A stretch of 47,435 nucleotides of DNA from an uncultured Bacilli bacterium (lineage in GTDB: Bacteria; Bacillota_I; Bacilli_A; RF39; UBA660). The translations under genes and the position numbers were made by a program. Where the stretch lies: NCBI GenBank assembly GCA_947589165.1, contig CANQCH010000001.1:1-47435 (forward strand), in the 5' to 3' direction. The notes under the pieces were generated by a model. It did not search any database. It was given only the letters and a program-made list of their open reading frames with translations, and was not told the DNA's origin. Shown piece after piece: positions 19,252 to 40,975 of this stretch (position 1 is the stretch's first letter; each line of letters starts with the position of its first letter).

Positions 19252-19258
19252 GTGAAAT

Positions 19259-20011
19259 ATGGCAATTTTAATTTTTATTCTTGGCTTATTATTTGGCTCA
19301 TTTTATTTAGTGGTGGGTCTACGTTTACCCAAAGGGGAAGATGCTTTATTTTCTAGAAGCCACTGCGATAACTGTCAGCATGTTTTAAAATGGTATAATT
19401 TAATTCCCATTTTTTCTTTTATTGGGCAAAAAGGAAAGTGTCCCTATTGTCACGAAAAAATTAGTCCCTTAAATATAATAGTGGAATTAGCCACTGGTTT
19501 TCTTTTTACCTTAGGATATTTAATGTACGGTTTTTCTTATGAATTTTATCTATATTTAATCGTTGTTTCATTAATGATCCTAATTTTTATTACCGATTTC
19601 ATTTATTTAATTATTCTAGATTCACCATTAATTATTGGTACTATCTTAGTTATTATTTTAAAATATATTTACTTGGGCCTTATGCCTGCTTTAACTAGTC
19701 TTTTGAATGGTATTTTATTATTTTTCGTCATGTATTTAATTCAATTTCTAGGGAGTAAATTATTTAAAAAGGAATCTTTAGGTGGCGGTGATGTTAAATT
19801 TGCCTTTCTAATTGGGTTAATTTTGGATTTTCCTTTAGGTTTAGTGACCTTAATTTTATCGACTTTTTTAGCTTTACCATATTCCATAGCTACTTTATAT
19901 ATGACCAAAAATCACGAAGTGCCATATGGTCCCTTTTTAGTTGGAGCGCTTTTTATCGTTATTGTTTTCTTAGATAAATTTAAAGCTTTATTATTAGTAT
20001 TATTTCCATAA
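19259..20011 (+). CDS. Prepilin peptidase (A24 family, PilD/ComC-like)
   Basis: N-terminal Cys cluster (CDNC...CPYC), GGGDVKF catalytic Asp motif, polytopic. Confidence 0.88.
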   Translation: MAILIFILGLLFGSFYLVVGLRLPKGEDALFSRSHCDNCQHVLKWYNLIPIFSFIGQKGKCPYCHEKISPLNIIVELATGFLFTLGYLMYGFSYEFYLYLIVVSLMILIFITDFIYLIILDSPLIIGTILVIILKYIYLGLMPALTSLLNGILLFFVMYLIQFLGSKLFKKESLGGGDVKFAFLIGLILDFPLGLVTLILSTFLALPYSIATLYMTKNHEVPYGPFLVGALFIVIVFLDKFKALLLVLFP

Positions 20012-26085: not shown

Positions 26086-27000
26086 TTAGTTTATTCCTTT
26101 TTCTATTTTAGCTCGAGGATGATTTTGATAATCTTCTTCGAGTTTTTTATTGCTTAAATGGGAATATATTTCGGTCGTAGCCAAATTTTCATGGCCTAAT
26201 AATTCTTGAATAACTCTTAAATCAGCGCCATGATTAAGTAAATGGGTCGCAAAAGAGTGTCTTAAGGTATGGGGAGATACATCCTTTTTAATCCCACATT
26301 TTTGACATAATTGCTTTAGTATTTTAAAGAATCCCACTCTACTTATGGCATTACCATCTTTATTTAAAAAGACAAAATCGGTGGTATTTTTTATTAAATA
26401 GGGTCGATAATTTGCCAAATAAAGTTTTAAATACTTGATGGCAACATCATTCATGGGAACAATTCTTTCTTTCTTCCCCTTCCCCATAATTCGAATTACA
26501 CATTCATCAAAATCAATTTGATTTAATTTTAAATTAACTAATTCGCTAATTCTCGCTCCCGTGGCGTATAATAACTCTAACATCGCTTTATTACGGTAAT
26601 CTAAGGGTTTAAGACATTTAATATTTAGTAAATTATTTACTTCTTCTTCCGTCAAATAATTAGGTAATTTTTTCTCTAATTTAGGCATTTTTAGCGCCGC
26701 ACAAGGATTATTATCAATCTTACCAATAATTATTAAATAATTATAAAAAGAATTTAAAACGGTTAAATAATGAGCCTTAGTTTTGGCGGTCGAATTCATT
26801 TGATAAATAAAATTTTTTACTTCGGCATTCGTTAAATGTAAAATATTTTTATTTGACCAAAACACCACAAAATTAGTTAAATTTTGGCGATAAGATTTTA
26901 ATGTATTTTCACTAACTTTCCGTTCATATTTTAAATAATCGAGATAATCATTTATTATTTCTTTATTATTCATATCCTCATCACTAATATTATAACGCAA
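26086..27000 (-). CDS. xerD: Tyrosine recombinase XerD/XerC family
   Basis: ATGARISEL and RHSFATHLLNHGADLRVIQELLGHENLATTEIYSH motifs. The XerC versus XerD assignment and the start (TTG 27000 or ATG 26973) are uncertain. Confidence 0.8.
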   Translation of the reverse strand: MRYNISDEDMNNKEIINDYLDYLKYERKVSENTLKSYRQNLTNFVVFWSNKNILHLTNAEVKNFIYQMNSTAKTKAHYLTVLNSFYNYLIIIGKIDNNPCAALKMPKLEKKLPNYLTEEEVNNLLNIKCLKPLDYRNKAMLELLYATGARISELVNLKLNQIDFDECVIRIMGKGKKERIVPMNDVAIKYLKLYLANYRPYLIKNTTDFVFLNKDGNAISRVGFFKILKQLCQKCGIKKDVSPHTLRHSFATHLLNHGADLRVIQELLGHENLATTEIYSHLSNKKLEEDYQNHPRAKIEKGIN

Positions 27001-27065: not shown

Positions 27066-28265
27066 ATGGAAATTTTAGCAGATCAATTACGGCCCCAAAG
27101 GTTAGCTGATGTAGTTGGGCAAAAGCATTTAGTTGCTCCTGGCAAAATTATTTTTAATATGGTTAAAAATCATAAAGTTTTTTCGATGATTTTATATGGT
27201 AAGCCCGGGATTGGCAAAACCTCTATTGCCTACGCTATTGTAAATGAGCTTAATTTAAAAGCTAAATTTATGAGTGCGGTCATTAATAATAAAGCCGATT
27301 TTGATACGGCGATCATGGAAGCCAAAATGCATGGCGAATTAGTCTTAATTATTGATGAATTTCATCGCATGAATAAAGATAAACAAGATATTTTATTACC
27401 TTATATTGAAAATGGCACCATTATTTTAATTGGTTTAACTACTTCTAATCCTTATCATAAAATTAATCCGGCGATTCGCAGTCGGTGTCAAATATTTGAA
27501 TTAAAAGAATTAAATGAAGAAGATATCAAAGAAGGTTTAACTAAAGCTAAAAAACATTTACCCAATATTAAAATTACGGAAGAAGCCCTTAGTTATATTA
27601 GTAATCTTGCAAGCGGTGATTTACGCTTTGCCCTTAATTTATTGGAAGTCTGCTACTACTCGACGGAAGATAAAAAAATTACGCTCGATTTAGTAAAAAC
27701 CATTAATAGTAAACCGGTATTTTTTCATGATGCCAATGAAGATGGCCATTATGACGTTTTAAGTGCTTTTCAAAAATCTATTCGTGGTAGTGATGTTGAT
27801 GCTTCTTTACATTATTTGGCTCGTTTAATTGAAGCAGGTGATTTAGATAGTATTTATCGCCGGCTTTCCGTAATTGTTTATGAAGATATTGGTCTTGCTA
27901 ATCCAGGTTTAGGACCAAGGTTAATGGCCGCCATAAATGCTGCCGAATTAGTTGGTCTCCCCGAAGCCCGCATTCCTTTAGGGGAAATTGTCATTGAAAT
28001 GGCTTTATCTCCTAAAAGTAATAGTGCTATCCTTGCTATCGATGAAGCTTTAAATGATATTCATAAAGGTAATACGGGTAATGTCCCTAGTCATCTTAAA
28101 ACAACCAGTCCGGATTATATATATCCGCATAATTATCCGCATGATTATGTTAAACAAGATTATTTACCTGAAAACATTCGGCAACATCAATATTATCATC
28201 CCAAAAATAATAACGTTGAAAATAACTTAAATAAATTACACAAAGAAATGAGGAATGAAAAATGA
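27066..28265 (+). CDS. rarA: Replication-associated recombination protein A (MgsA/RarA AAA+ ATPase)
   Basis: Walker A GKPGIGKTS, Walker B IDEFHR, C-terminal MgsA domain (HYD..SAF.KS.RGSD.DA.L.Y.ARL). Confidence 0.92.
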   Translation: MEILADQLRPQRLADVVGQKHLVAPGKIIFNMVKNHKVFSMILYGKPGIGKTSIAYAIVNELNLKAKFMSAVINNKADFDTAIMEAKMHGELVLIIDEFHRMNKDKQDILLPYIENGTIILIGLTTSNPYHKINPAIRSRCQIFELKELNEEDIKEGLTKAKKHLPNIKITEEALSYISNLASGDLRFALNLLEVCYYSTEDKKITLDLVKTINSKPVFFHDANEDGHYDVLSAFQKSIRGSDVDASLHYLARLIEAGDLDSIYRRLSVIVYEDIGLANPGLGPRLMAAINAAELVGLPEARIPLGEIVIEMALSPKSNSAILAIDEALNDIHKGNTGNVPSHLKTTSPDYIYPHNYPHDYVKQDYLPENIRQHQYYHPKNNNVENNLNKLHKEMRNEK

Positions 28266-29239
28266 AAATAAGTATTATTGGAACTGGCATTTACGGTGTC
28301 GCTTTAGCGCACGAAATGGCCAAAAATAATCAAAATGAAATCTGGATGTGGTCCGAAAATCCTGATTATGTTAAAGAATATCAAAAAAATGGGCAAATTA
28401 AGGCCATATACAAACAAAAATGGGCTAATAATATTCATGTTACTAATGATTACTTTGAGTCCTTAAATGGCGCTAAAATCGTCTTTTTAGTTAGTGCTTC
28501 TAAATATATTGATATTATTTGCCAAAATATTAAACCATTTATTAAGAAAAATATGGCCATTTGCATTGCTTCTAAAGGTATTGAAGAAAGTACCGAAGAA
28601 TTACTTTCTAATGTGGTTATGAAAAATATCCATACCCAAAATATTGCCGTCATTTCGGGACCAACTTTTGCTACTGATATGCTTGCCGGTAATCCAGTAG
28701 CTCTGGCCATTGCTTCATCTAAAAAATGGGTTGAACAATTAATTCGCCAAGCTTTAACCAATGAAACCCTTAAACTACGTTCCAGTAAAGATATGATTGG
28801 CATTCAATTATGTGGAGCCACAAAAAACTGTCTAGCGATCGCTTCAGGAATTCTTTATGGTTTAGGTTATACCGAATCAACACAAGCCTTTCTGATTAAT
28901 GAAGCCCTTCATGATATGAAACAAATTATTGCAAGTTTGGGTGGTAAACCCAAAACGATTCTTTCTTTCGCGGGCGTGGGTGATATCATGCTTACTTGCA
29001 TGAGTCAAAAAAGCCGCAATTTTTCTTTTGGTTATGTTATTGGTAAAACTCACAATCCTGATAAAATCAAAGCTTACTTAAGTGAAAATACGGTTGAAGG
29101 TTATTATACCTTAGATGTTATTTATAAATTATTAAAACATAAAAATATTAATATTCCTTTAATTGATACTATTTATAATATTGTCTATAATGATGATGAT
29201 CCGAAAAAACTAGCGACATTTTTAATCACGAAAAAATAA
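28262..29239 (+). CDS. gpsA: NAD(P)H-dependent glycerol-3-phosphate dehydrogenase
   Basis: N-terminal Rossmann motif IIGTGIYG. GPTFA and G..KN motifs. ATGA overlap with rarA. Confidence 0.9.
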   Translation: MKISIIGTGIYGVALAHEMAKNNQNEIWMWSENPDYVKEYQKNGQIKAIYKQKWANNIHVTNDYFESLNGAKIVFLVSASKYIDIICQNIKPFIKKNMAICIASKGIEESTEELLSNVVMKNIHTQNIAVISGPTFATDMLAGNPVALAIASSKKWVEQLIRQALTNETLKLRSSKDMIGIQLCGATKNCLAIASGILYGLGYTESTQAFLINEALHDMKQIIASLGGKPKTILSFAGVGDIMLTCMSQKSRNFSFGYVIGKTHNPDKIKAYLSENTVEGYYTLDVIYKLLKHKNINIPLIDTIYNIVYNDDDPKKLATFLITKK

Positions 29240-29266: not shown

Positions 29267-29448
29267 AAAAAAAAATCCAAAGGTAAGTCTATTCTTGATA
29301 AAATCCCGCGCTCGGCAGGTGGGCATCACATGAATTACTTTAGGATCCTTTCGACACTTAATGGGAAAGTATTCTACACCATAACTCAATTAGATTCCCG
29401 TATATTTATCATAGTCGGTTTTATATAAAATAAACTTATCCCTCAGAC
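29267..29448 (-). ncRNA. Candidate structured small RNA of about 180 nt, rod-like fold compatible with 6S RNA
   Basis: It has its own promoter (29455..29483) and ends in a U9 run (29267..29275). By hand, the 5' end GUCUGAGGG-A-UAAGUUUAUUUU-AU-AUAAAACCG pairs with the 3' end CGG-GA-UUUUAU-C-AAGAAUAGACUUA-CCUUUGGAU. That is about 30 bp including G-U pairs. The helix encloses unpaired stretches of about 16 and 12 nt, then inner helices GGGAAUC/GAUGCCC and GAAUACUUU/AAAGUAAUUC. No convincing ORF is present on this strand. Confidence 0.45.
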
Positions 29449-29454
29449 AATATA

Positions 29455-29488: not shown

Positions 29489-30292
29489 TTACTCTTTTAC
29501 CTGTAAAGTTAACACTGATGCTAAATCAGTATATATATTTAAAGCGTTATAATCATTTAAGGCTTTATTTACATTGGCTACCCACGTAGGACTTGCGATC
29601 TTTTTTCCTTCGCTTGTAATAACCGGATTATAGACGCGGCCGATCGCCTCTACTGTTGTTAATCCTTTACCAAAATAATTTTCACTTAGTAATTTAATAT
29701 ATTTTAAAATTCCGTATTCTATCGTTCGATATTTAATTAATTTACCCTTACTCATACCGCCAAAAATATTATTACATTTTAACATATAAGAAGAACGATA
29801 ACCAGATTCTATTTTCGCTATAGCACTTGCAATATTAAAATCGACATTAGAATAAATTTGCGTATAATAACTAATTAAACTAATCATATATTCTTTCGAT
29901 ACCGTTTTATTTTGAACATTATAGTTAAATAAACTTTTATCATTTTGTTCAAGATCAAATAAATAATCAATTAATAGTTTATCAAAATTAGGCGTATTTA
30001 ATAAATCTAAAGAATCAGCTTGTTCTTTTAATAAATTCCTTAAAGTAACTTTATCAATGCGAAAAGCTTCCGCATAAAAATTAATAGTTTCATCCTTTTC
30101 TTCTAAAAATAAGTCTACTTTCTCTATATAACTTAATTCTAAATTATTATTAACTTTTATTGCTTCATAATTTAAATCTTTAGTTTTAGACATTAAGTTT
30201 TTAACATGCGGATATTCAATTAACATCCAGATACTTAAAGCAATTAAAACGATAATTAATCCTTTTCGATTTTTCAGGACATACTCTTTCAT
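29489..30292 (-). CDS. Membrane-anchored protein with a C-terminal glucosaminidase (LytD/FlgJ-type, PF01832-like) domain
   Basis: One N-terminal TM segment (LIIVLIALSIWMLI). The C-terminus has IAKIESGYRSSYMLKCNNIFGG...YRTIEYGILKYIKLL, typical of mannosyl-glycoprotein endo-beta-N-acetylglucosaminidase domains. The start is set at ATG 30292, downstream of the putative promoter. The ORF track starts at 30346. Confidence 0.7.
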   Translation of the reverse strand: MKEYVLKNRKGLIIVLIALSIWMLIEYPHVKNLMSKTKDLNYEAIKVNNNLELSYIEKVDLFLEEKDETINFYAEAFRIDKVTLRNLLKEQADSLDLLNTPNFDKLLIDYLFDLEQNDKSLFNYNVQNKTVSKEYMISLISYYTQIYSNVDFNIASAIAKIESGYRSSYMLKCNNIFGGMSKGKLIKYRTIEYGILKYIKLLSENYFGKGLTTVEAIGRVYNPVITSEGKKIASPTWVANVNKALNDYNALNIYTDLASVLTLQVKE

Positions 30293-30334
30293 AAATGGAA
30301 AAATTCCACCTCTTCTTTTTACAGAATGGTTACT

Positions 30335-30363
30335 ATTATACCGCATAAGGCCAAAAAAAGCAA
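30335..30363 (-). promoter_or_regulatory. Putative promoter of the glucosaminidase-domain gene
   Basis: Minus strand reads TTGCTT (30363..30358), a 17-nt spacer, then TATAAT (30340..30335). Confidence 0.45.
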
Positions 30364-30366
30364 ATT

Positions 30367-30388
30367 AAAAGCCCCGAAGGACTTTTTT
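30367..30388 (-). terminator. Hairpin downstream of the HerA-like gene
   Basis: Minus strand reads AAAAGUCC-UUCG-GGGCUUUU, then AAUUUGCUUUUUUU. It starts 9 nt after the HerA-like stop codon. Confidence 0.5.
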
Positions 30389-30396
30389 AGCTTATT

Positions 30397-32214
30397 TTAA
30401 ATTGTTGTTTGACCAGCAAAATTGGCTCCGGTTGGAACCGTCGGAGAAACATTATTACCTGTACTAGCCATCTTCCAACAAGATGAAACATCACAGTTAG
30501 TACTATATGGTAACGGATTTGGTAATTCTAATTTCACAATCATCGGAATTTTAAAAGCCCCACCAAAGCAAACACAATTACCTGGTTGTAAAACCTTTTG
30601 TTTATCTAAAATATCCGCGGAAATATTTGGTAACATTTCTTCGATATATTTGATATCTAACGGATGGGTCATTTTAAAAATAAGGAAATTATTACATTGG
30701 GCAATAACCGTATCTGATATTTCGACTGGTCTTTGACTAATTATATCTAAAATTACGCCATATTTCCGGCCTTCTTTGGCAATTCGATCAAAGATATTAT
30801 AACCAATTAAGAAAGTATCATTATCTTTTTGAATATACCGATGGGCTTCTTCTAAGAATAAATGGAATGGAATAGATGCTCTTTTTTCACAAGCTTTCGC
30901 AAATTCAAATAACATCCGAGAAAAGATTTTTACAATTACTTTAGCATAAACATCGTCGACATCTTCTAAATTAATATTAATTATTTGCGCTTTTTTCCCA
31001 TTATTCATGACTAAAGAATTAATATAATCTTTTACGGTAATCCCTTGACTTACAAAATATTTATTTAAAGGACTATTAATGATGGAAGCTAACCGCACCT
31101 TTAAGATAACAGCATCATCGTGGGCACTAGCATTATGTTGGAAGCCTTCGCTAATTAATGTAAATTCTAAGGCATTGGCCAAGGCTTTTAAATCATAACA
31201 AGCATCATTTGGTACCGCCATGGTTTCAATATCATCATTTATATGTTTTAAAATATAATCTGTAATTAAAACGGATTCCCCAAAATTACCATTAGAATCG
31301 ATTTCAAAACATTCACTTAAGCTACGGGTATAACCTAAACCTTGAATTGTCGAATCAAAATTAAAATCTTTGGTATGACAAACTTCTAAAATCGTAAATA
31401 TTTCATTTTTCTTATTCGAAATCGTTTCACTACTAAACAAAACAGCTAGCATGGCTTTAGCAATTAAATGGTTTTTATAACTTTCCGTTTCAGGCGTATT
31501 AACGGCAAATATTTTAGCTAATTTAAGCGTATTTTCTAAGATTGGTAATTGAGAATGACTACTAGCTTGTAGTAATAAGGCAATATCATCAAGTGTAAGT
31601 AAATTCACCGGTATTTGTAATAAAACATCACTTGGATCAACGGGATTAGTTGTAATAAATTTATAACTATAACTCGGATTTATTTCATTTAATTTGCCAA
31701 AAGCATTTTTATATTCGCCATATGCATCAAAAATAAATAAATTGGCATTAAATTGGACCGCTAATTCATTGCTAAAAATATTTTGAACAATCCGCGCGAC
31801 CCCACACGATTTACCAGAACCAGAGTTTCCAAAAATAGCTAAATGGTTAGAAAATAAATCATTGACATTAGGACATAACTTAAAACCTTTATAAATGGCA
31901 CTTTCGCCTAAAACAAAAGTCTTTTCGTTATAACTACCAATTAAAAGTAATAATTCATTACTATTTATAACCCGAATTTTACTACTTAATAAAGGTTTCC
32001 GTAAAACCCCATTAACATACCGGTTATCCAAAAATTCGCCTAAAAAGCGCACTTTAATTTCTTTATCATTTATTTCGGTAATTTCGCCTAAAATCCGTTG
32101 GGTATTTTCTTCAAAAACGATATGTAAATTCATTAAATCATTAGCTGCCGTGGCACCGCCTAAATTTTCAATATGGGCTACCGAATCATTAATATATGTT
32201 ATTCGTCCAAACAT
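30397..32214 (-). CDS. HerA/DUF87-family (FtsK-HerA superfamily) P-loop ATPase
   Basis: N-terminal beta-rich HAS-barrel-like segment (GRITYINDSVAHIEN...GEITEINDKEIKVRFLGE). Walker A GNSGSGKS at 31807..31830. Also IFDAYGEY, IININLEDV, Walker B HLFLEEAHRY, and GRKYGVILDIISQRPVEISDTVIAQCNNFLIFKMTHPLD. 605 aa, with no TM segment. Confidence 0.85.
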   Translation of the reverse strand: MFGRITYINDSVAHIENLGGATAANDLMNLHIVFEENTQRILGEITEINDKEIKVRFLGEFLDNRYVNGVLRKPLLSSKIRVINSNELLLLIGSYNEKTFVLGESAIYKGFKLCPNVNDLFSNHLAIFGNSGSGKSCGVARIVQNIFSNELAVQFNANLFIFDAYGEYKNAFGKLNEINPSYSYKFITTNPVDPSDVLLQIPVNLLTLDDIALLLQASSHSQLPILENTLKLAKIFAVNTPETESYKNHLIAKAMLAVLFSSETISNKKNEIFTILEVCHTKDFNFDSTIQGLGYTRSLSECFEIDSNGNFGESVLITDYILKHINDDIETMAVPNDACYDLKALANALEFTLISEGFQHNASAHDDAVILKVRLASIINSPLNKYFVSQGITVKDYINSLVMNNGKKAQIININLEDVDDVYAKVIVKIFSRMLFEFAKACEKRASIPFHLFLEEAHRYIQKDNDTFLIGYNIFDRIAKEGRKYGVILDIISQRPVEISDTVIAQCNNFLIFKMTHPLDIKYIEEMLPNISADILDKQKVLQPGNCVCFGGAFKIPMIVKLELPNPLPYSTNCDVSSCWKMASTGNNVSPTVPTGANFAGQTTI

Positions 32215-32215
32215 A

Positions 32216-32659
32216 TTACCTCACCTCTTTATATTCATGTTTAATTTGGTTAAAATTTTTAATTATATTTTTCTCAATGGGAATTAAATTAATTAGAACT
32301 TTATTACTTTCCTTTAGATCTTGATTTACTTGATAATTAATATTTACTATTTCCCCTACCCTAATTTCTACTTTTAAAATTTCTAAGTTTTTGTTGTAAG
32401 GAATAAAATCAACAATATAGTCTTTAGTTTGAAAATCACGTGGTTTTAATTTTCCCCAAAGATGATACTTAGCTAAAAAGTCTGTGTATGTGGCATAATT
32501 TGAAAGGAAAATTGGTTCATACTCTAAATTAGCCTTTTTTTCCATTAGGGCAATAGTTATATCATTATGATGAAAATATAAAGCCCAACTCGCAACTAGC
32601 AAAATAAGAAGAAAAACGATGCCAATAATTAATCCCGTCACTGTTTTGCCATTTTTCAT
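32216..32659 (-). CDS. Single-pass membrane protein of unknown function (cassette gene B)
   Basis: The ATG at 32659 overlaps the upstream TGA (ATGA). Its TAA at 32218..32216 lies 1 nt before the HerA-like ATG, with GAGGTGAGG inside its 3' end. TM segment: VTGLIIGIVFLLILLVASWALYF. Confidence 0.65.
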   Translation of the reverse strand: MKNGKTVTGLIIGIVFLLILLVASWALYFHHNDITIALMEKKANLEYEPIFLSNYATYTDFLAKYHLWGKLKPRDFQTKDYIVDFIPYNKNLEILKVEIRVGEIVNINYQVNQDLKESNKVLINLIPIEKNIIKNFNQIKHEYKEVR

Positions 32660-33414
32660 GAAGTAATTCTTTCTGTGCTTTGCCAACGATAAGTATTATT
32701 ATTAATAATAAGTTTACTTTGGTATTTATTAATTACCGTTTTATATTTAGCTAAAATATAATCGGTAACCGCATAATTTTTCCGGTCTTGATCCGTAAAA
32801 GTTGCTATTTTATTTTGATATTGGGAATCATCATAGATAGTATATATTTTTTCGTTATTAGTCTCTGCAATTGTATAAAAAATAACATCTTCATTTAAAA
32901 AATAATCATCATCAATAATGTTTAATTTGGTAATTCTTCTGGCTAAAGAATAAGTTAACCCGTGGTAAGCATTCGCTGTGCAATCATAATTTGCCTTTTC
33001 ATTAAAGGTACAATTAACAACGCCATCAACATTAAAACTTTTATTGGTAATAAATAAATTGCCACCATATAAACGAGTAATATAAGTATTAAAACTATTT
33101 TGATTTTTCACCGTAGTATGATCATACGCTATTTTTAAAAATATTTCTGTCGTAATTTGGGCATTGGTAATTTTTTCCTTTTGGTAGGCTGTCGTATATT
33201 TTAAATCATTGGTATTTACAAAAGGAATGATTTCTTGTAGACGTTTAGCAATAGCATTATCTTGATCGGTTATTTCGATATTAACAGGAGCTTGAGGAAT
33301 AATAATATTCCGGCCAACCTTGGTATAAAATAAAAAACAAAACAGAAATAAGAAAATCATTAAAATTAATATAAACGTAACGTTTTTCTGTACTTTTAAT
33401 AAATTTTTCTTCAT
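32656..33414 (-). CDS. Single-pass membrane-anchored extracytoplasmic protein of unknown function (cassette gene A)
   Basis: GAGGG RBS. Basic N-terminus plus TM segment (VTFILILMIFLFLFCFLFY). C-terminal KL.....YRW.S motif. A TGATATACT extended -10 element lies upstream. Confidence 0.65.
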   Translation of the reverse strand: MKKNLLKVQKNVTFILILMIFLFLFCFLFYTKVGRNIIIPQAPVNIEITDQDNAIAKRLQEIIPFVNTNDLKYTTAYQKEKITNAQITTEIFLKIAYDHTTVKNQNSFNTYITRLYGGNLFITNKSFNVDGVVNCTFNEKANYDCTANAYHGLTYSLARRITKLNIIDDDYFLNEDVIFYTIAETNNEKIYTIYDDSQYQNKIATFTDQDRKNYAVTDYILAKYKTVINKYQSKLIINNNTYRWQSTERITS

Positions 33415-33485
33415 ACTAACCCTCTTCTTCTATTCTAAAAATAGTATATCATAATATTAAAAAGAAGAAAATAAAAAGAAGAAAA

Positions 33486-34922
33486 TTATTGCATTTCTTC
33501 TAATAAATTTTTTAAAATATCTTTCGTTAAAATCGGATTAGCTTTACCTCTAGTTTCTTTCATGACTTGACCAACAAAGAAATCAAATAAATTACTCCGA
33601 CCATTTAAATAAGCCTTAACTTCATTCGGATTATTTTGTAAAATATCTCGAATTAAGTTCATCAAAGTCGTCTCATCAGAAATTTGACTATCTTCAGCTT
33701 TTAAAAAGGTTTTAATTTCTTTTTCTTCCTGAAGAACTTGTTTAAATATTTCTTTAGCTTGCTTAGATGAAATCGTTCCTTCTTTAATTAAAGTAAGTAA
33801 TTCTTTTAATCGCTTGGGGGTTAAATAGATCTCTTTAATGGTTTTATTAGTTTGATTTAAATAACCCATGATTTGGGTCGTTAGCCAATTACTAGCCATT
33901 TTAGCATCAAGATCCAATTTTAAACATTCTTCAAAATAATCCGCGATGTCTTTATCTTTAATTATCGTGGCAATTTCCGACTTTGTTAAATTATATTTTT
34001 CCGCATATAATTTTTCGCGTTCTAAAGGTAACATCGGAATTGTTTTTTTTATTTTCGCTATCCAAGTAGCATCAAGATGAAATTTAGGAATATTAGGTTC
34101 TACAAAATATTTATAATCAATGGCATCGACTTTACTCCGCATTCTTTTGGTAGTTCCTGTTTCTTCGTCAAAACGGCGGGTTTCTTGTTCAACTTCCGCA
34201 TAACGCCCTTCTCTTTTTAACGTACTTTGCCGTTTAATTTCGTATTCGATGGCTTCAACGATATTAAGAAAACCATTAATATTTTTAACTTCGACTTTCG
34301 TACCTAAAGTATTGCTTCCTTTATCGCGAATCGATATATTAGCATCACAGCGAATTTGCCCCTTTTTTAAATCGGCTTCGGAAACATCACAATATTGGTA
34401 AACTAAGCGCATATATTCCAAAAAAGCTAAAACTTCCGCCGAACTATGAAAACAAGGTTCGGTAACTAATTCCAATAATGGTACACCTGCGCGATTATAA
34501 TCTATTAAGGATACATCAAAATAATGGCTTAAGCTCGCACTATCTTCTTCGAGATGAATATCATGAATCTTCACCGTTTTTATTTTATCATCAACTAAAA
34601 TATCAATTTGGCCATTAGTCCCAATGGGATCAGTATTTTGGGTAATTTGATAGCCTTTTGGTAAATCCGGATAATAATAATTTTTCCGATCAAAATACAA
34701 ATATTCGGGAATTTGACAATTTAATACTAAAGCCACTTTTAAGGCATCTTGGACACATTTGCGATTAACTTCTGGTAAAATCCCGGGAAAAGCTAAATCA
34801 ATTGGATGAACATTAGCATTGGCTAATTCATTAAAATTATTCGGTGCCGGCGAAAATACTTTCGAATTACTTTTTAATTCGCAGTGCATTTCAATCCCAA
34901 TTACAGCTTCGTAATCATTCAT
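33486..34922 (-). CDS. gatB: Asp-tRNA(Asn)/Glu-tRNA(Gln) amidotransferase subunit B
   Basis: YE.VIGIE.H..L and the full GatB/YqeY architecture, 478 aa. ATGA overlap with gatA. Confidence 0.95.
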   Translation of the reverse strand: MNDYEAVIGIEMHCELKSNSKVFSPAPNNFNELANANVHPIDLAFPGILPEVNRKCVQDALKVALVLNCQIPEYLYFDRKNYYYPDLPKGYQITQNTDPIGTNGQIDILVDDKIKTVKIHDIHLEEDSASLSHYFDVSLIDYNRAGVPLLELVTEPCFHSSAEVLAFLEYMRLVYQYCDVSEADLKKGQIRCDANISIRDKGSNTLGTKVEVKNINGFLNIVEAIEYEIKRQSTLKREGRYAEVEQETRRFDEETGTTKRMRSKVDAIDYKYFVEPNIPKFHLDATWIAKIKKTIPMLPLEREKLYAEKYNLTKSEIATIIKDKDIADYFEECLKLDLDAKMASNWLTTQIMGYLNQTNKTIKEIYLTPKRLKELLTLIKEGTISSKQAKEIFKQVLQEEKEIKTFLKAEDSQISDETTLMNLIRDILQNNPNEVKAYLNGRSNLFDFFVGQVMKETRGKANPILTKDILKNLLEEMQ

Positions 34923-36379
34923 TTTCTTACCTCCCCGGCAATCATATTGGCATAGTTCATTTTTTGTTCTAAAGCATAGGCAATATTTAAAACATTAGCA
35001 TCATCGTAACAATTACCGGTAATATTAACCCCAACCGGTAAATTATTTATAAAACCATTGGGAATGGTAATTGATGGAAATCCGCCAAAATTACCAATTT
35101 GCAAATGTTCTTCCAAAATTTCAGTATCTTCACTTAAAAGATCTTCGGCGCCATCTAAATGTTTGGCAGGTCCACTTCCCACTGGGAGAATAACCCCATC
35201 ATAAGTAGCAAATAAGTTTTTCCAAGCATCAACGAGTAACCGTCGAACTCTTTGGGCATTTTTGAAATATTTTTCTTGATTTTCTTTTTGTAAAACATAA
35301 GAACCGATGACAAACCGTCTTTTAATAAGTGGAGAAAATCCTTTAGTCCGATGATCTTTCATCATAGCATTAATATTTTCCCCTTCGCCGCGGGGGCCAA
35401 AAATAATTCCGGTTAAATTAGATAAATTACTAGTTGCTTCCGCATAAGATAAGATTATATATACGGCCGGTTCGACCGCTAGCAAATTTTTATCAATACT
35501 AACTTCATCAACAATCATCCCCAGATCCCGACAAATTTTTATTGTTTGGGCAAAATTAGTTAAATGCGCTTTTAATTCATTTGTCGCTTTCGGATAATTA
35601 CTAATATCACAAATTTCTTTAATATAACACAATTTTTTTCCTTTTACATCGCCATTTAAACTAGCTTGTAAATGCACATTTTGGGAATCCCAAGAAGTCA
35701 TATCATGGGGATCTTTACCTTTCATATTATCCATTACAATCGCAGCATCCATGACAGAACGAGTTAAAACTCCACAGTGATCTAAACTAGAAGCATAAGG
35801 AAATAAACCATAACGGGAAACTAAACCATAAGTCGGTTTATAGCCAACAATGCCACAATAGGCGGCAGGTTTCCGAATCGAATCACCAGTATCAGATCCT
35901 AAAGCATAAGGATAACAACCGGCTGCTACCGCTGCCGCTGAACCAGCTGATGAACCAGCACACATCCGATCTTGAGCCCAGGGATTACGAATAATTCCTG
36001 TATGAGCTGTCGTCCCTGTACCACCCATGCCAAATTCATCCAAAGCAGTTTTATTTACCATAATAGCTCCAGCATTAGTTAAATTTTTTACCGCCGTAGC
36101 ATCAAATATTGGCACATAATCTTTTAAAGTATTACTTGAACCCGTCGACAAAACGCCTTTTGTCGCATAGTTATCTTTAACTCCGTAAGGAATTCCCGAT
36201 AATAAATTATCCGTCACTTCTCTTCCTTTTGCTTCATCTAAAATAGTCACGAAAGCATTACATTTTTCTTCTATTTCGTGGGATTTTGTTAAAGACTCTT
36301 GGACCAACTCTTGACTTGTAACCTCGCCCTTTTTTAAGGCTTCATGAATTTCTACAATACTTTTATTCATGTACGTCAT
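34919..36379 (-). CDS. gatA: Amidotransferase subunit A (amidase signature)
   Basis: Amidase signature GGSSAGSAAAVAAG-like (GSSAGSAAAVAAG) and DTGDSIR. Confidence 0.95.
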   Translation of the reverse strand: MTYMNKSIVEIHEALKKGEVTSQELVQESLTKSHEIEEKCNAFVTILDEAKGREVTDNLLSGIPYGVKDNYATKGVLSTGSSNTLKDYVPIFDATAVKNLTNAGAIMVNKTALDEFGMGGTGTTAHTGIIRNPWAQDRMCAGSSAGSAAAVAAGCYPYALGSDTGDSIRKPAAYCGIVGYKPTYGLVSRYGLFPYASSLDHCGVLTRSVMDAAIVMDNMKGKDPHDMTSWDSQNVHLQASLNGDVKGKKLCYIKEICDISNYPKATNELKAHLTNFAQTIKICRDLGMIVDEVSIDKNLLAVEPAVYIILSYAEATSNLSNLTGIIFGPRGEGENINAMMKDHRTKGFSPLIKRRFVIGSYVLQKENQEKYFKNAQRVRRLLVDAWKNLFATYDGVILPVGSGPAKHLDGAEDLLSEDTEILEEHLQIGNFGGFPSITIPNGFINNLPVGVNITGNCYDDANVLNIAYALEQKMNYANMIAGEVRK

Positions 36380-36677
36380 TTGTATTCACCACCTTTGGTA
36401 CCACAATTTCCCGGTCTTCAAAATCATCACAATTACTTAATACTTCTTCAATTGGTAAACCTTCTACCGCGACATCATCTCTTAATTCTACAGTAAAATC
36501 ATCTAGACAATGTGTCATCGGTTCTACTTTGGAAATATCCTTAATTTCCGTTACTTTATCCATTGTTGCTTCAATAATATCCATTTCTTGTAAAACCATT
36601 TCATTTTCCGTAGGTGTTAAACCAATTAATAATTTATCCGCATAATCGTCAACCATTGCTTTTGTAAATTTACTCAT
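36363..36677 (-). CDS. gatC: Amidotransferase subunit C
   Basis: About 100-aa acidic protein directly upstream of and overlapping gatA. AAGGAAGG RBS. Confidence 0.85.
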   Translation of the reverse strand: MSKFTKAMVDDYADKLLIGLTPTENEMVLQEMDIIEATMDKVTEIKDISKVEPMTHCLDDFTVELRDDVAVEGLPIEEVLSNCDDFEDREIVVPKVVNTNDVHE

Positions 36678-36764: not shown

Positions 36765-37643
36765 TCAAGAAATGAGCTCAATATATTGATGCCGAATCCC
36801 TTTTAATTCTTTTGGTTTAATTGTTAAACCACATTGTAACCGCCGCGCCAAAGGAACACTTTCGGTAATATTTTGCTTCATAAATAAAGGATTAGCACTA
36901 TAAAAGTTAAAATCTCTAAATAATCCTTTAAAATTTTGGTCATTAAAGAAATCTATCGTTGGCGCACTAGGTGTCAAGACATTAGTTTTATAATCTTTGA
37001 TTAAATTTTCCAAAATTGAAGCTTGCATAAAGTTAATTATATTTACGGTCTTATGTGGTATCGCCATCGCTACGTCTAAGATTAACATCGAAGCATAAAA
37101 ATTAGCTAAATGACTAAGTGGTTCAAATAAAGTTTTATGATTAGCCAATTTATGATCGTAAATGGCTAACATTTCTTCAATACTAGCCGGCAAATTTTCA
37201 ATATTAGCTTCAAAATCTAATCCCGTAAATAAAATTTTATGTAAAATGTTGGCGCGAATAATAACTGCTTCCAAATTTTTAGCAGAAGTACTAGCAATAT
37301 GCCATTGATTAATTTTTTCAATCTCGATTGCTAAGCAATAAATAATATTTAAAATTTGAATAATTAAATTGTCCTTATCCGAAAAAGAATGAAAATTTTC
37401 ATTCATAAAGAGTGGTTTACTATCTTTTAAGGAAGAATTAATAATTAATCGCCGTTCATCATAACTATATAAAATATCTGGATTTTCACTATAAATGATA
37501 TTTGTAAATGTTACTTTGTCCAAATATGGTACCAAGTCTTTTTCTTTAACTATTATTGAAACGATTTCCGCGATATCGCGATTATTAATCTTTCTTTTCG
37601 TATCAATGATATTTTCTACAATTAAAGCTAATTTTTTAACCAT
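36765..37643 (-). CDS. Hypothetical protein (P1)
   Basis: 292-aa ORF with a GAGGGGGG RBS and its own consensus promoter. I recognise no domain. Confidence 0.65.
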   Translation of the reverse strand: MVKKLALIVENIIDTKRKINNRDIAEIVSIIVKEKDLVPYLDKVTFTNIIYSENPDILYSYDERRLIINSSLKDSKPLFMNENFHSFSDKDNLIIQILNIIYCLAIEIEKINQWHIASTSAKNLEAVIIRANILHKILFTGLDFEANIENLPASIEEMLAIYDHKLANHKTLFEPLSHLANFYASMLILDVAMAIPHKTVNIINFMQASILENLIKDYKTNVLTPSAPTIDFFNDQNFKGLFRDFNFYSANPLFMKQNITESVPLARRLQCGLTIKPKELKGIRHQYIELIS

Positions 37644-37703: not shown

Positions 37704-37727
37704 AAAAAAGCCTTTTAAGGCTTTTTT
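37704..37727. terminator. Hairpin at the end of P2
   Basis: AAAAAAGCC-ttttaa-GGCTTTTTT is symmetric. It overlaps the last P2 codons and stop. Confidence 0.55.
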
Positions 37728-38284
37728 CTTCGCGATAATGCAAAGACATCATCAATAAATAACGGATTATACATTAAAAAACGATTTATTTCATCAGTTA
37801 AAATTTGACATCCTTTTTGATCAATATTAGTAAAAGTAAAATCCGATAAGATTCTTGTTAATGGTACTTGATAAGCCTTTTTTGCCGTTTCGCCATCAGT
37901 ATAAGATAAAATATTGCCATCCAAAGCTTCAATTTTACCAAAAGTTTCCGTTTCTCCAATTAGTAAAAAATCAAAATCACTTTGATTAGCTACCGGATAT
38001 GCTAAGCTAAAAGTATTATCAAAATTAAATAAAGCTTGAAAACTGGTTTTAGCCAAACAATTTTCCGGATTAGTAACTGCTTCTAAGGCTAGTTCATTAT
38101 CTAAAGCTTGAATTTTTCTTTGCCTTAATAAATGATTAATAATATCTTGTTCTTCATAGACATCATTTTGACGAATTCGGTATAAAGTTTGCCGAATTAT
38201 ATTTTGGCGGGCACTATAACTAAGATGATAGGCATCATTATCTAAAATATTTAATAATTTTTGGGTTAATTCAAATGCCGTCAT
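37715..38284 (-). CDS. Hypothetical protein (P2)
   Basis: 189-aa ORF. AAGGAAAGGA RBS. The start lies 14 nt downstream of the asnS stop. I recognise no domain. Confidence 0.65.
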   Translation of the reverse strand: MTAFELTQKLLNILDNDAYHLSYSARQNIIRQTLYRIRQNDVYEEQDIINHLLRQRKIQALDNELALEAVTNPENCLAKTSFQALFNFDNTFSLAYPVANQSDFDFLLIGETETFGKIEALDGNILSYTDGETAKKAYQVPLTRILSDFTFTNIDQKGCQILTDEINRFLMYNPLFIDDVFALSRRKKP

Positions 38285-38298
38285 AAAATATCCTTTCC

Positions 38299-39663
38299 TT
38301 AATATTCACAATTTCCTGGCGTCCGGGGATAAGGGATTACATCCCGAATATTATCGACACCCGTTAGGTAAATAATTAAACGTTCAAAACCCATGCCAAA
38401 GCCTGAATGAACGCAGCCGCCATAACGCCGAAGATTTACATACCATTCCATATCTTCTGGTTTCATTTTTAATTCTTTCATCCGGGTAACTAATTTTTCG
38501 TAATCTTCTTCTCTTTGACTACCACCCATTAATTCGCCCGCTCCAGGTACTTCTAAATCCACGGCGGCTACCGTTTTGCCATCGGGATTTTGTTTCATAT
38601 AGAATGCTTTAATATCCTTAGGCCAATTTTTGATAAAAACGGGACCATGAAAATAATCCGTGATATATTTTTCATGTTCTTTAGCAATATCCCCACCAAC
38701 CTCAGGCATAAATTCCCATTTTACCGGCGCTTCTTGTAATATTTTAATCACATCCGCATGATCAATTCGCACAAATTGGCTATTTACTAAGTTCGTTAAT
38801 TTCGTAATAAGACCCTTTTCCACAAAATTATCACATAATTCTAATTCTTTAGGACAATTATCTAGCACGTATTGTACGACATATTTTAACATTTCTTCCA
38901 TAATATCCATATTGCCAGCCAAATCGCAAAAGGCAATTTCTGGTTCAATCATCCAAAATTCTGAAGCATGCGTTTTAGTATTCGAATTTTCGGCGCGAAA
39001 AGTAGGCCCAAAAGTATAAGTTTTTTTATAAGCTAACGCAAAGGTTTCCGCTTCTAGTTGCCCACTCACAGTTAAATTAGTCATTTTCCCAAAGAAATCT
39101 TAGCGATAATCAATATCCCCTTTTAATTTAGCAAGTGGCAAAGTGGTAACTTGAAACATTTCTCCGGCCCCTTCACAGTCACTAGCCGTAATTAATGGGG
39201 CATGAAAATAGACATAACCACGATCTTGAAAATATTTATGGATTGCATAAGCTGCAGTACTCCGAATGCGAAAAACAGCTTGAAAAAGATTAGTACGTGG
39301 CCGTAAATAAGCTACTTCCCGGAGAAATTCCCGCGTATGTCTTTTGGGTTGAATCGGATAATCTTCCGGACAGTCACCTAAAAGCGTAATTTCTTGTGCT
39401 TGAAGTTCAATATCTTGTTTCCCTTTAGATGGGACAATTATTCCTTTAACATTAATCGCACAACCTACTAAAAGTTTTTGAATATCTTTAAAATTGGCTA
39501 ACGACTCATCATAAACAATTTGTAAATGTTCTTGATGCGTACCATCGGAAAAATCAATAAAACCAAAAGTCTTTTGATCTCGGTGATTACGAATCCAACC
39601 CGAAATCGTAACTTCTTGATTTAAATATTTTTTCGTATCTTGAAATATGTCTCTTAAATCCAT
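38299..39663 (-). pseudogene. asnS: Asparaginyl-tRNA synthetase interrupted by a single in-frame TAA (39102..39100)
   Basis: ORFs 39100..39663 (OB-fold anticodon-binding part) and 38299..39084 (class II catalytic core) are in the same frame. The junction reads DIDYR*DFFGKMTNLTVSGQLEAE. Motif 2 (FRAENSNTKTHASEFWMIEPE) and motif 3 (GFGMGFERL) are intact. Confidence 0.85.
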
Positions 39664-39677
39664 ATTAGTCTCCTTTT

Positions 39678-40967
39678 TTATGGGGTAAGTCGTGATGGAC
39701 CCCTAAATATAAACATTTCTTCTTTTAAGGATGGAATGCCTAATAAAAGCATGGTCAACCGGTCAACGCCAATGGCAAAGCCTCCATGAGGCGGACACCC
39801 ATAACGGAAAAATTGGAGATAAAATTCGACATCTTTATCTAAACCTTTTTCCCGGGCTTGTTTTGTTAATTCTTCATAACGATGTTCTCTTTGCGCTCCG
39901 GTAGTAATTTCAGTGCCTTTCCATATCAAATCAAACCCTTGGGGTACATCATCTTTCCGCATGTGATAGAATGCTCTTTTTGTTTTGGCAAAATCGGTTA
40001 CAAAGATAAATTCATGGCCGTATTCTTCCATAGCAAAACGGGAAGTTAATTTTTCGGCTTCAGCATTCATATCGCCAATATCATACGCCGGAATTTCATA
40101 ATTATACCTTTTATTTAATTCTTGATATAAATCTTGTAATTTAATCCGCGGGAATGGCCGTTTAGGAATAATAACATCGGTTGCAAAAAGACGTTTAATT
40201 TCTTCGCCATATAATTCTTTAACCTTGGTTAAACCGGCGATTAATAATTCTTCTTCTAAATCCATTACATCAGTATAAGAATCGATATATGCAAATTCTA
40301 AGTCAAATGAAGTAAATTCGGTAGTATGCCGATTCGTATTGGAATTTTCCGCCCGAAATGCTGGTGCAACTTCAAAAATTCGTTCTAAACCACTCGCGAT
40401 TGCCATTTGCTTATAAAATTGGGGACTTTGCGCTAAATAGGCTTTACGATCAAAATATTTAACTTCAAAAACATCTGAACCAGATTCACTCGCCGTGGCT
40501 ATTAATTTGGGCGTATGAATTTCCGTAAAGTTTTGTTTTATTAAAAAGGAACGCATACCATCCACAAAAGCTGATTGTACTTTAAGCATTAAATTATTTT
40601 TTTCCGTCCGTAAATCAATCCAACGGTAATCTAATCGTGTATCAATATTGGCGGTTACATCTATTGGTAACATTTCGGCTTTACTTAAAATTTTAAGACT
40701 TTCGGGAATAAATTCTCTTCCCCCTTGTTTAACATATTCACTTAATTGCATTTTGCCGGTAAATTCTAAAATGCTATTTGCTAAAACGCCATCTAATTCT
40801 TTAACTAAAGCGGCATTTTGGGCTTTATCAAGCGAAACTTGAATTTTCCCACTGGCATCTTTTAAAATGATAAAAAGCATATATTTTGTATCCCGTATTG
40901 CTTCGGCCCAACCACTAATTCTCGCTTCTTCGCCAGCTTCTAAATTATTAATAAGTACTCTTTTCAT
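39678..40967 (-). CDS. aspS: Aspartyl-tRNA synthetase, short archaeal/type-2 form lacking the bacterial GAD insertion
   Basis: About 429 aa. FRAENSNTNRHTTEF and GGFAIGVDRL motifs. AGGAG RBS before the ATG at 40967 (the ORF track starts at GTG 40973). Confidence 0.9.
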   Translation of the reverse strand: MKRVLINNLEAGEEARISGWAEAIRDTKYMLFIILKDASGKIQVSLDKAQNAALVKELDGVLANSILEFTGKMQLSEYVKQGGREFIPESLKILSKAEMLPIDVTANIDTRLDYRWIDLRTEKNNLMLKVQSAFVDGMRSFLIKQNFTEIHTPKLIATASESGSDVFEVKYFDRKAYLAQSPQFYKQMAIASGLERIFEVAPAFRAENSNTNRHTTEFTSFDLEFAYIDSYTDVMDLEEELLIAGLTKVKELYGEEIKRLFATDVIIPKRPFPRIKLQDLYQELNKRYNYEIPAYDIGDMNAEAEKLTSRFAMEEYGHEFIFVTDFAKTKRAFYHMRKDDVPQGFDLIWKGTEITTGAQREHRYEELTKQAREKGLDKDVEFYLQFFRYGCPPHGGFAIGVDRLTMLLLGIPSLKEEMFIFRGPSRLTP

Positions 40968-40975
40968 AATCACTC

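Follow-up and report, generated by a model that had tools for sequence, protein, structure and literature searches.

The window analysed here is the whole 47,435-nucleotide stretch, positions 1 to 47,435 of contig CANQCH010000001.1, from an uncultured Bacilli bacterium (GenBank assembly GCA_947589165.1). Its subject is a minus-strand locus in which two genes for small membrane proteins, here called A and B, lie directly upstream of a gene for a HerA-clade ATPase. An earlier reading of this DNA, made from its letters and open reading frames (the sequence-only reading), had proposed that the three genes form an undescribed, dedicated membrane-associated HerA module. Our analysis points to a different picture, to which we assign a probability of about 0.6: a co-transcribed string of genes with a core, stand-alone ("orphan") HerA and with A and B as occupants of a variable slot, not a three-part machine. 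That A, B and HerA are not a dedicated module is better supported than any specific role for HerA. What is new here is an orphan core HerA subfamily beside uncharacterised surface-protein genes; the proposed novel system is not supported.

According to this picture, herA would be the conserved last gene of a gatCAB-led transcription unit, and the interval between gatB and herA would be a hypervariable slot for sublineage-specific accessory genes, most of them exported. A and B would be the filling of this slot in the window's subclade, as Sec-inserted, membrane-anchored surface proteins with fast-evolving ectodomains. HerA would be a vertically inherited, strongly constrained ATPase common to a lineage of low-GC gut Bacilli. 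From its family we infer a cytoplasmic, hexameric, ATP-driven translocase with DNA as its substrate and a housekeeping role in genome maintenance, such as the processing of DNA ends or forks. If it has a nuclease or another partner at all, the gene for that partner would lie at some other place in the genome.

Identity and conservation of HerA

The locus was read on the minus strand, from a list of open reading frames (ORFs) and directly from the sequence. The three genes are:

32656-33414, minus strand: gene A, bitopic membrane protein, 252 amino acids
32216-32659, minus strand: gene B, bitopic membrane protein, 147 amino acids from its ATG
30397-32214, minus strand: HerA-clade P-loop ATPase, 605 amino acids, the conserved element of the locus

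Direct reading agreed with the earlier account of how these genes are joined: the TGA of A and the ATG of B overlap as ATGA, a single base separates the TAA of B from the ATG of HerA, and the HerA ribosome-binding site (GAGGTGAGG) lies in the last codons of B. The longest ORF for gene B begins further upstream, at a TTG at position 32686.

On sequence grounds, the assignment of the ATPase to the HerA clade is solid. The protein matched Pfam DUF87 (PF01935) with E 3.5e-20 (73.5 bits against a cut-off of 23.2) and the PADLOC HerA model PDLC04102 with E 1.4e-104. Nine solved HerA-type chains in the PDB were matched at E 7e-07 or better (best E 1e-43), and alignments to solved HerAs begin at residues 54-72, past residues 1-53 of the putative HAS-barrel-like N-terminus that the sequence-only reading had named. 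When the PDB was searched with a profile of the orthologues, the best match was the HerA of HerA-DUF4297 (9c1m, E 5.9e-52, 180 bits), followed by other anti-phage HerAs and by Sulfolobus HerA (4d2i, E 8.8e-35). The catalytic motifs are intact. The short motifs listed by the sequence-only reading were all found, namely GNSGSGKS (residues 129-136), FDAYGEY, LEEAHRY (LEEAH at 454-458), GRKYG (EGRKYG at 481-486) and ISQRP (SQRP at 493-496). In an alignment of 81 orthologues most residues of these motifs do not vary; Walker A, Walker B, GRKYG and SQRP show no or almost no variation, and the C-terminal half of the protein is mostly invariant.

Every NCBIfam equivalogue cut-off was missed, which marks this HerA as a distinct subfamily: the two anti-phage HerA models scored 172.5 bits against 850 and 148.4 against 800, and another scored 118 against 800. 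Matches to the FtsK_SpoIIIE Pfam family (PF01580, 14.6 bits against a cut-off of 24) and to TrwB were likewise below threshold, as was that to the CedD NCBIfam model (64.6 bits against 600), and there was a weak match to TraB. No pronounced hydrophobic stretch was apparent on reading the sequence, a hydropathy scan not having been run. An exact-sequence look-up of the window HerA returned no record, a phage collection gave distant terminase-type matches only, and no HerA relatives were found on viral contigs. In a search of plasmids, the nearest HerAs were SIR2-adjacent ones on Listeria plasmids, with 30% identity over 87% of the protein. A search for literature on HerA in RF39 or Mollicutes found nothing relevant.

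To our knowledge, every HerA that has been studied acts through partners such as NurA, SIR2 or DUF4297. Domain scans of the flanking proteins, in the window and in the sampled loci described below, revealed no NurA, SIR2, DUF4297, Mre11, Rad50 or other nuclease domain on either side of HerA, as the sequence-only reading had stated for the known effectors in the window. Genes 3' of HerA are as variable as those 5' of it (GNAT, ThiF, DXP synthase, an ABC transporter and small unknowns), and none is a nuclease.

For the comparison of loci, one genome was taken per species. At least 475 species genomes, from low-GC gut Bacilli, yielded a HerA relative, each counted as a locus, and the best 80 loci (68-86% identity) were examined in detail. 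The protein has more than 8000 database homologues, the best 120 of which are all at least 72% identical. Record names among the best 80 include 'Mycoplasma sp. CAG:472', 'CAG:776', 'uncultured Tenericutes' and 'Candidatus Caccenecus', all of them uncultured low-GC gut Bacilli; the lineage that carries the orphan HerA is one we take to be GTDB order RF39. A recurring gene order was seen in these loci: gatA-gatB, a variable stretch, herA, a second variable stretch, and gpsA-rarA on the reverse strand. GatA/GatB were recovered 5' of HerA by tblastn in about 40 of the 80.

Within the subclade that bears A and B, median identity to the window protein is 84% for HerA, 81% for both GatA and RarA, 68% for GatB and 63% for GpsA; it falls to 50% for a 285-residue protein encoded downstream of HerA, 40% for A and 35% for B. 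Lineages with neither A and B nor this downstream protein, a putative wall hydrolase, conserve HerA to the same degree. High identity, a housekeeping neighbourhood with a fixed position between gatCAB and gpsA-rarA in the best 80 genomes and the lack of relatives on viral contigs together argue that HerA is a vertically inherited core gene and not a defence or mobile gene. The sequence-only reading had asked whether the cassette tracks gatCAB or defence islands; HerA does accompany gatCAB, while a link to defence islands found no support in a window made up of housekeeping genes.

Genes A and B and the gatB-herA interval

A and B have a much narrower distribution. By tblastn and hidden Markov model (HMM) searches they were found only in loci L001-L008, where HerA identity is 76-86%, and in L084/L085, where it is 75%. 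In L001-L008 A and B are 30-42% identical, a rate of change similar to that of surface proteins free of constraint. B is missing cleanly from L002, where 8 nucleotides lie between the end of A and HerA (L002:4979-4988). The A gene of L005 is interrupted at codon 143, directly ahead of the conserved cysteine, by an in-frame TAA (L005:5195-5197). HerA is intact in both, at 84-85% identity. A Fic-domain gene splits B from HerA in L006 (L006:2295-3137), and in L084 an IS605 TnpB gene and a tyrosine integrase gene are inserted between gatB and A. The block formed by A, B, HerA and the hydrolase-like gene is disrupted in L006 and L008.

The gene directly 5' of HerA was recorded in 75 loci, with families named from Pfam labels:

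24 loci: anchored protein of about 324 amino acids, unknown family
13 loci: Cadherin-like protein with cleavable signal peptide and C-terminal anchor
10 loci: serpin with N-terminal anchor
6 loci: B
1 locus: A
2 loci: PGA_cap
3 loci: DHH-DHHA1 phosphoesterase
3 loci: Fic-type
3 loci: gatB itself
10 loci: others, namely a family of about 170 amino acids with a HAD_SAK_2 match, and singletons

Profile-profile comparison detected no homology between these slot families beyond the hydrophobic helix. The proposal of a dedicated membrane-associated module is not supported, on several counts. HerA is conserved throughout the best 80 loci, while A and B are bound to one subclade, within which B has been lost (L002), A interrupted by a stop codon (L005) and the cassette split by a Fic gene (L006). 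In other lineages the slot holds unrelated genes or none, and A and B have almost no cytoplasmic residues. The A-B-HerA adjacency is not unique to this genome, since it is seen in ten related genomes, and to that extent the earlier proposal held up; the overall pattern is mostly against a module, which leaves the proposal weakened but not strictly refuted.

Two candidate relationships among the slot proteins were considered and rejected. An iterative HMM search starting from B appeared to link it to the family of about 324 residues; profile-profile comparison aligned only the hydrophobic helix (probability at most 52%), so the link is ascribed to profile drift. A and B together were also considered as a split form of upstream proteins of 390-440 residues found in other loci; those proteins are serpins or Cadherin-like and have no similarity to A or B.

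The serpins occur in one sublineage (L009, L010, L021, L026, L027, L033, L036 and L075; for example L009:4792-5988). They are about 390 residues long with an N-terminal membrane anchor, match Pfam Serpin with E 4e-64, and end 3-13 nucleotides before HerA. Such anchored serpins of gut Bacilli may merit attention for their own sake. Fic/DOC genes directly 5' of HerA occur in two unrelated arrangements, one in L006 (L006:2295-3137) and the other in L029 (L029:4772-5845; also L018 and L040). Together with TnpB and the integrase in L084, these Fic/DOC genes suggest that the gatB-herA interval acts as an insertion hot spot.

The topology proposed earlier for A and B, single-pass with the N-terminus inside and the C-terminus outside, fits their sequences: each has one N-terminal hydrophobic helix, with lysine and arginine more abundant before it than after it. 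Ahead of the helix, A has 9-28 residues and B has 3-12, rich in lysine and without conservation. As A and B are almost wholly extracellular, they offer no obvious surface for a cytoplasmic HerA ring. The statement that neither belongs to a characterised family also stood, there being no significant Pfam, NCBIfam, PADLOC or PDB sequence match for either. An AlphaFold2 model of A (predicted local distance difference test score, pLDDT, 83.8) has, after the N-terminal membrane helix, an alpha/beta ectodomain in which three helices precede a curved antiparallel sheet. Foldseek matches of this model to the PDB were all at E 0.2 or worse; NTF2-like folds recurred among these non-significant matches (ARC6/PARC6 intermembrane domains, LinA and the RsgI9 NTF2 domain).

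An exhaustive profile search of 1.84 billion proteins returned 37 representatives of A, the distant ones sharing the motifs TAYQ and Y-K-H-T-F-K-K-N..G.Y-Y-W-x-S-T-E-P. One metagenomic protein of 559 residues (P0157) is a fusion of an ECF sigma factor (Sigma70_r2 plus r4), a membrane segment and an A-like ectodomain, which suggests that the A-type domain can act as an extracellular sensor module. Three contigs with A-domain relatives could be read; there the relative lies beside RNase Y and a giant adhesin, beside a P-type ATPase, or beside an aminoacyl-tRNA synthetase-like gene, and on none of the three is it beside HerA. B has a small beta-rich ectodomain, and its family alignment shows the conserved motif DF..DYIVDFIPY. 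A single-sequence model of B (pLDDT 53) was not used for a fold search. A PrcB_C-like domain, suspected in B from reading its sequence, was dropped after none of 8 family members gave a Pfam match to it. When the concatenated A and B alignments were used as one query, five A homologues and no B were among the matches listed.

The transcription unit and the rest of the window

Around the three genes, the following features were found by ORF listing, pattern scans and reading of the sequence:

36363-36677, minus strand: gatC, an ORF of the gatCAB block (33486..36677), the conserved housekeeping operon 5' of the cassette
34919-36379, minus strand: gatA, an ORF
33486-34922, minus strand: gatB, an ORF, ending at 33486
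33415..33485, minus strand: gatB-A spacer, 71 nucleotides, holding the A ribosome-binding site (AGAAGAGGG)
30367-30386, minus strand: terminator-like hairpin, AAAAGTCC-TTCG-GGGCTTTT, followed by a T-rich tail
29489..30346, minus strand: downstream membrane-anchored protein, 285 amino acids, with a weak glucosaminidase-like C-terminus

Genes with GatC, Amidase and GatB Pfam labels are also present in L084. Gene A begins 71 nucleotides after the end of gatB at 33486, and a scan detected no terminator between them, as had been noted before. The spacer contains a weak promoter-like match (33460-33432). The sole promoter-like site of full consensus in the region, TTGACA-17-TATAAT at 37702-37674, precedes a gene of 292 amino acids that itself lies 5' of gatC. 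At the other end, the terminator scan placed the hairpin and T-run (30386-30367) 10 nucleotides past the HerA stop codon, and the transcription unit probably ends there. The absence of a terminator between gatB and A, the hairpin after HerA and the position of the full-consensus promoter make it plausible that the gene string is one transcript ending after HerA.

The sequence-only reading had gone further and argued from the tight junctions that the three genes are translated as one unit. They are co-oriented and probably co-transcribed; tight junctions, however, are the norm in this genome. In the window, 15 of 40 same-strand gene pairs overlap or lie within 3 nucleotides of each other, the median gap being 14 nucleotides, and the tight pairs include unrelated ones such as rarA-gpsA, rpoD-trmK and aspS-hisS. 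Two consecutive tight junctions are therefore unremarkable, and are no argument for a functional unit.

The downstream 285-residue protein is a putative cell-wall hydrolase, judging from a Pfam Glucosaminidase match below cut-off (E 0.0049) and from similarity to the phage cell wall hydrolase 8yxk (E 3e-4). It has 47-54% identity in 5 loci, is also present in L084, and is kept solely in the subclade with A and B. It probably lies outside the A-B-HerA unit. Directly 3' of its gene is a 6S (SsrS) RNA gene (29270-29452, minus strand; Rfam RF00013, 56.8 bits against a gathering score of 46.4).

The remainder of the window consists of housekeeping genes: ruvX, mltG, greA, RNase HIII, uvrC, dnaG, rpoD, trmK and mnmA, with a Xer-type recombinase gene, rarA, gpsA, aspS, hisS, dtd and relA. 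No defence island was found among the window genes. Several further features were observed:

36765-37643, minus strand: ORF 5' of gatC, 292 amino acids, no Pfam match
37715-38284, minus strand: ORF 5' of gatC, 189 amino acids, no Pfam match
38299-39663, minus strand: class II aminoacyl-tRNA synthetase (Asp/Lys/Asn type) split in two ORFs
17659-20011, plus strand: T2SSF platform protein (type II secretion/type IV pilus) and prepilin peptidase (A24), after dnaG-rpoD-trmK
26086-27000, minus strand: Xer-type tyrosine recombinase, divergent from rarA-gpsA
27066-29239, plus strand: rarA-gpsA, with rarA at 27066-28265

One part of the split synthetase, 187 residues, comprises the OB domain with the first portion of the core; the other, 261 residues, comprises the remaining core. 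The pair lies immediately 3' of a full-length copy of 431 residues (39678-40973); a frameshifted paralogue, a pseudogene and an assembly error are possible explanations. Beside the T2SSF/A24 pair there is no adjacent assembly ATPase, and no pilin genes were identified there. The xer and rarA-gpsA genes lie 3-5 kb from herA, and xer, rarA and gpsA recur near herA in L084; the proximity is loose, and a functional link between HerA and Xer is speculative.

Alternative explanations and known systems

Several observations weigh against reading the locus as a core gene behind a variable slot. By sequence, the closest characterised relatives of HerA are anti-phage HerAs and not repair HerAs, and we infer its housekeeping DNA role from family membership and conservation alone. 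Of 75 loci, 56 have an N-terminal hydrophobic segment in the product of the gene immediately 5' of HerA, compared with 23% of all ORFs there, and these exported upstream genes often stop 0-20 nucleotides from the HerA start. The idea that variable slots collect surface genes leaves this bias partly unexplained, although the bias could still arise in that way. In the subclade, moreover, the A-B-HerA order holds from 100% down to about 75% HerA identity, and in L084 it survives the insertion of IS605 TnpB and the integrase. The excess of exported proteins, the number of unrelated families involved (at least six) and the short distances to HerA keep alive a reading in which a conserved motor is tied to interchangeable upstream exported proteins (A and B here; an anchored serpin, a Cadherin-like protein or PGA_cap elsewhere) for export, display, turnover or DNA transfer, but we regard it as the least probable of those considered. 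Scarcely more credible is abortive infection of the SIR2-HerA or DUF4297-HerA type, with HerA as sensor and scaffold and the upstream gene, here A and B, as a swappable effector. It would account for the best PDB match (9c1m, 180 bits with the profile), for the best plasmid matches to SIR2-adjacent Listeria HerAs at 30% identity, whose effector gene is upstream and overlapping, for the strong PADLOC HerA match, and for an upstream gene that varies by lineage, often abuts HerA, and in some loci is a Fic gene. Unlike defence genes, however, HerA is inherited vertically across the order at one housekeeping locus with 68-86% identity; there is no defence island, A and B match no PADLOC model, and the NCBIfam anti-phage equivalogues score 172 and 148 bits against 850 and 800. 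The supposed 'effectors', furthermore, would for the most part be exported proteins, serpins or Cadherin-like ones with cleavable signal peptides, and three genomes have no slot gene upstream of HerA at all.

It is also conceivable, though unlikely, that A, B (A being possibly VirB8/NTF2-like), the HerA motor and the wall hydrolase constitute a subclade-specific envelope machine, a minimal trans-envelope translocator of DNA or protein comparable with Gram-positive type IV secretion, archaeal Ced or Thermus TdtA. The order A-B-HerA-hydrolase, shared by some ten genomes with HerA identities as low as 75%, is in keeping with such a machine, as are the recurring but non-significant NTF2-like Foldseek matches of A, the weak similarity of the 285-residue protein to glucosaminidases and a phage wall hydrolase, the weak CedD and TraB matches of HerA, and the precedent of TdtA, a HerA-like ATPase acting at the membrane (PMC5365140). 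Yet lineages without A, B and the hydrolase conserve HerA just as well, and within the subclade itself L002 has no B, the A gene of L005 is broken by a stop codon, and L006 and L008 do not keep the block intact. The locus has no polytopic channel protein of the VirB6 or CedA kind and no coupling protein, the hydrolase gene lies beyond the terminator, and A and B are nearly devoid of a cytoplasmic part; the Foldseek matches are all at E 0.2 or worse and CedD reaches 64.6 bits against 600. Equally improbable is a role for HerA as a chromosome-segregation or dimer-resolution motor, substituting for FtsK together with the nearby Xer recombinase and tethered to the membrane by A and B in this subclade. 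HerA lies within the FtsK-HerA superfamily (Iyer et al. 2004, cited in PMC5365140), a Xer-type recombinase gene and rarA are found 3-5 kb away both in the window and in L084, and conservation is at the level of a core gene. HerA has, however, neither a membrane anchor nor an FtsK gamma domain, its FtsK_SpoIIIE Pfam score is 14.6 bits against 24, the proposed tethers are not conserved, and xer is only loosely near and on the opposite strand. Taken together, these considerations favour a core orphan HerA preceded by a variable slot.

A three-gene module, if real, would have been a new membrane-coupled use of the HerA motor; the evidence says otherwise. What emerges is that a large, uncultured lineage of gut Bacilli with reduced genomes keeps a HerA as conserved as the subunits of its tRNA amidotransferase. 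A partner or substrate for this orphan HerA would reveal either the recruitment of a defence-type HerA to housekeeping or an unusual form of DNA-end processing, and it is reasonable to follow up an order-wide orphan HerA that is nearest the anti-phage branch. The gatB-herA slot is, for its part, a handy marker of fast-evolving surface proteins of gut bacteria, such as serpins, Cadherin-like proteins and BspA-type leucine-rich repeat proteins.

As far as its sequence and surroundings indicate, the window HerA is not a member of the HerA-NurA, SIR2-HerA/DUF4297-HerA, FtsK/SpoIIIE or VirB4/Ced systems. HerA proteins belong to the FtsK-HerA superfamily, and FtsK/SpoIIIE are thus ATPases of the same superfamily; the window protein, in contrast, lacks the FtsK N-terminal membrane domain and stays below the Pfam cut-off. 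In type IV secretion, VirB8-type bitopic proteins with NTF2-like ectodomains accompany VirB4 motors. The NTF2-like likeness of A is faint and non-significant, the partners are not conserved with the motor, there are no equivalents of VirB4, VirB6, VirD4 or CedA, and the cassette encodes no polytopic protein. For a HerA-like ATPase associated with the membrane, the nearest precedent is TdtA. This hexameric protein of Thermus thermophilus ICETh1 is reported to associate with the cytoplasmic membrane and to push DNA out of the cell; its gene shares a mobile, integrative conjugative element with genes for a NurA-like nuclease and a restriction enzyme (PMC5365140). The window HerA differs in being a core gene with no adjacent nuclease and no mobile element.

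The best sequence matches to the window HerA are anti-phage HerAs (9c1m, 8xau, 8ziq, 8j4u and that of the Listeria plasmid pLM1-2cUG1). They share with it a length of about 600 amino acids, the Walker A, Walker B and arginine motifs and a C-terminal 'ELPNP' region, and also a gene that abuts the HerA start codon on the upstream side. The window locus has no adjacent SIR2 or DUF4297 effector, however, its upstream genes encode exported proteins, the equivalogue cut-offs are widely missed, and the window HerA is chromosomal, vertically inherited and core-like where the anti-phage HerAs are mobile and patchy. HerA-NurA end resection (Sulfolobus 4d2i, Deinococcus, Thermus TTC0147) involves HerAs of the same clade (4d2i, E 8.8e-35). 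Their similarity to the window HerA is lower than that of the anti-phage HerAs, and no NurA, Mre11 or Rad50 gene flanks HerA in the window or the sampled loci. The likeness to this system would lie in function, a housekeeping role in genome maintenance being the most plausible one for the window HerA too.

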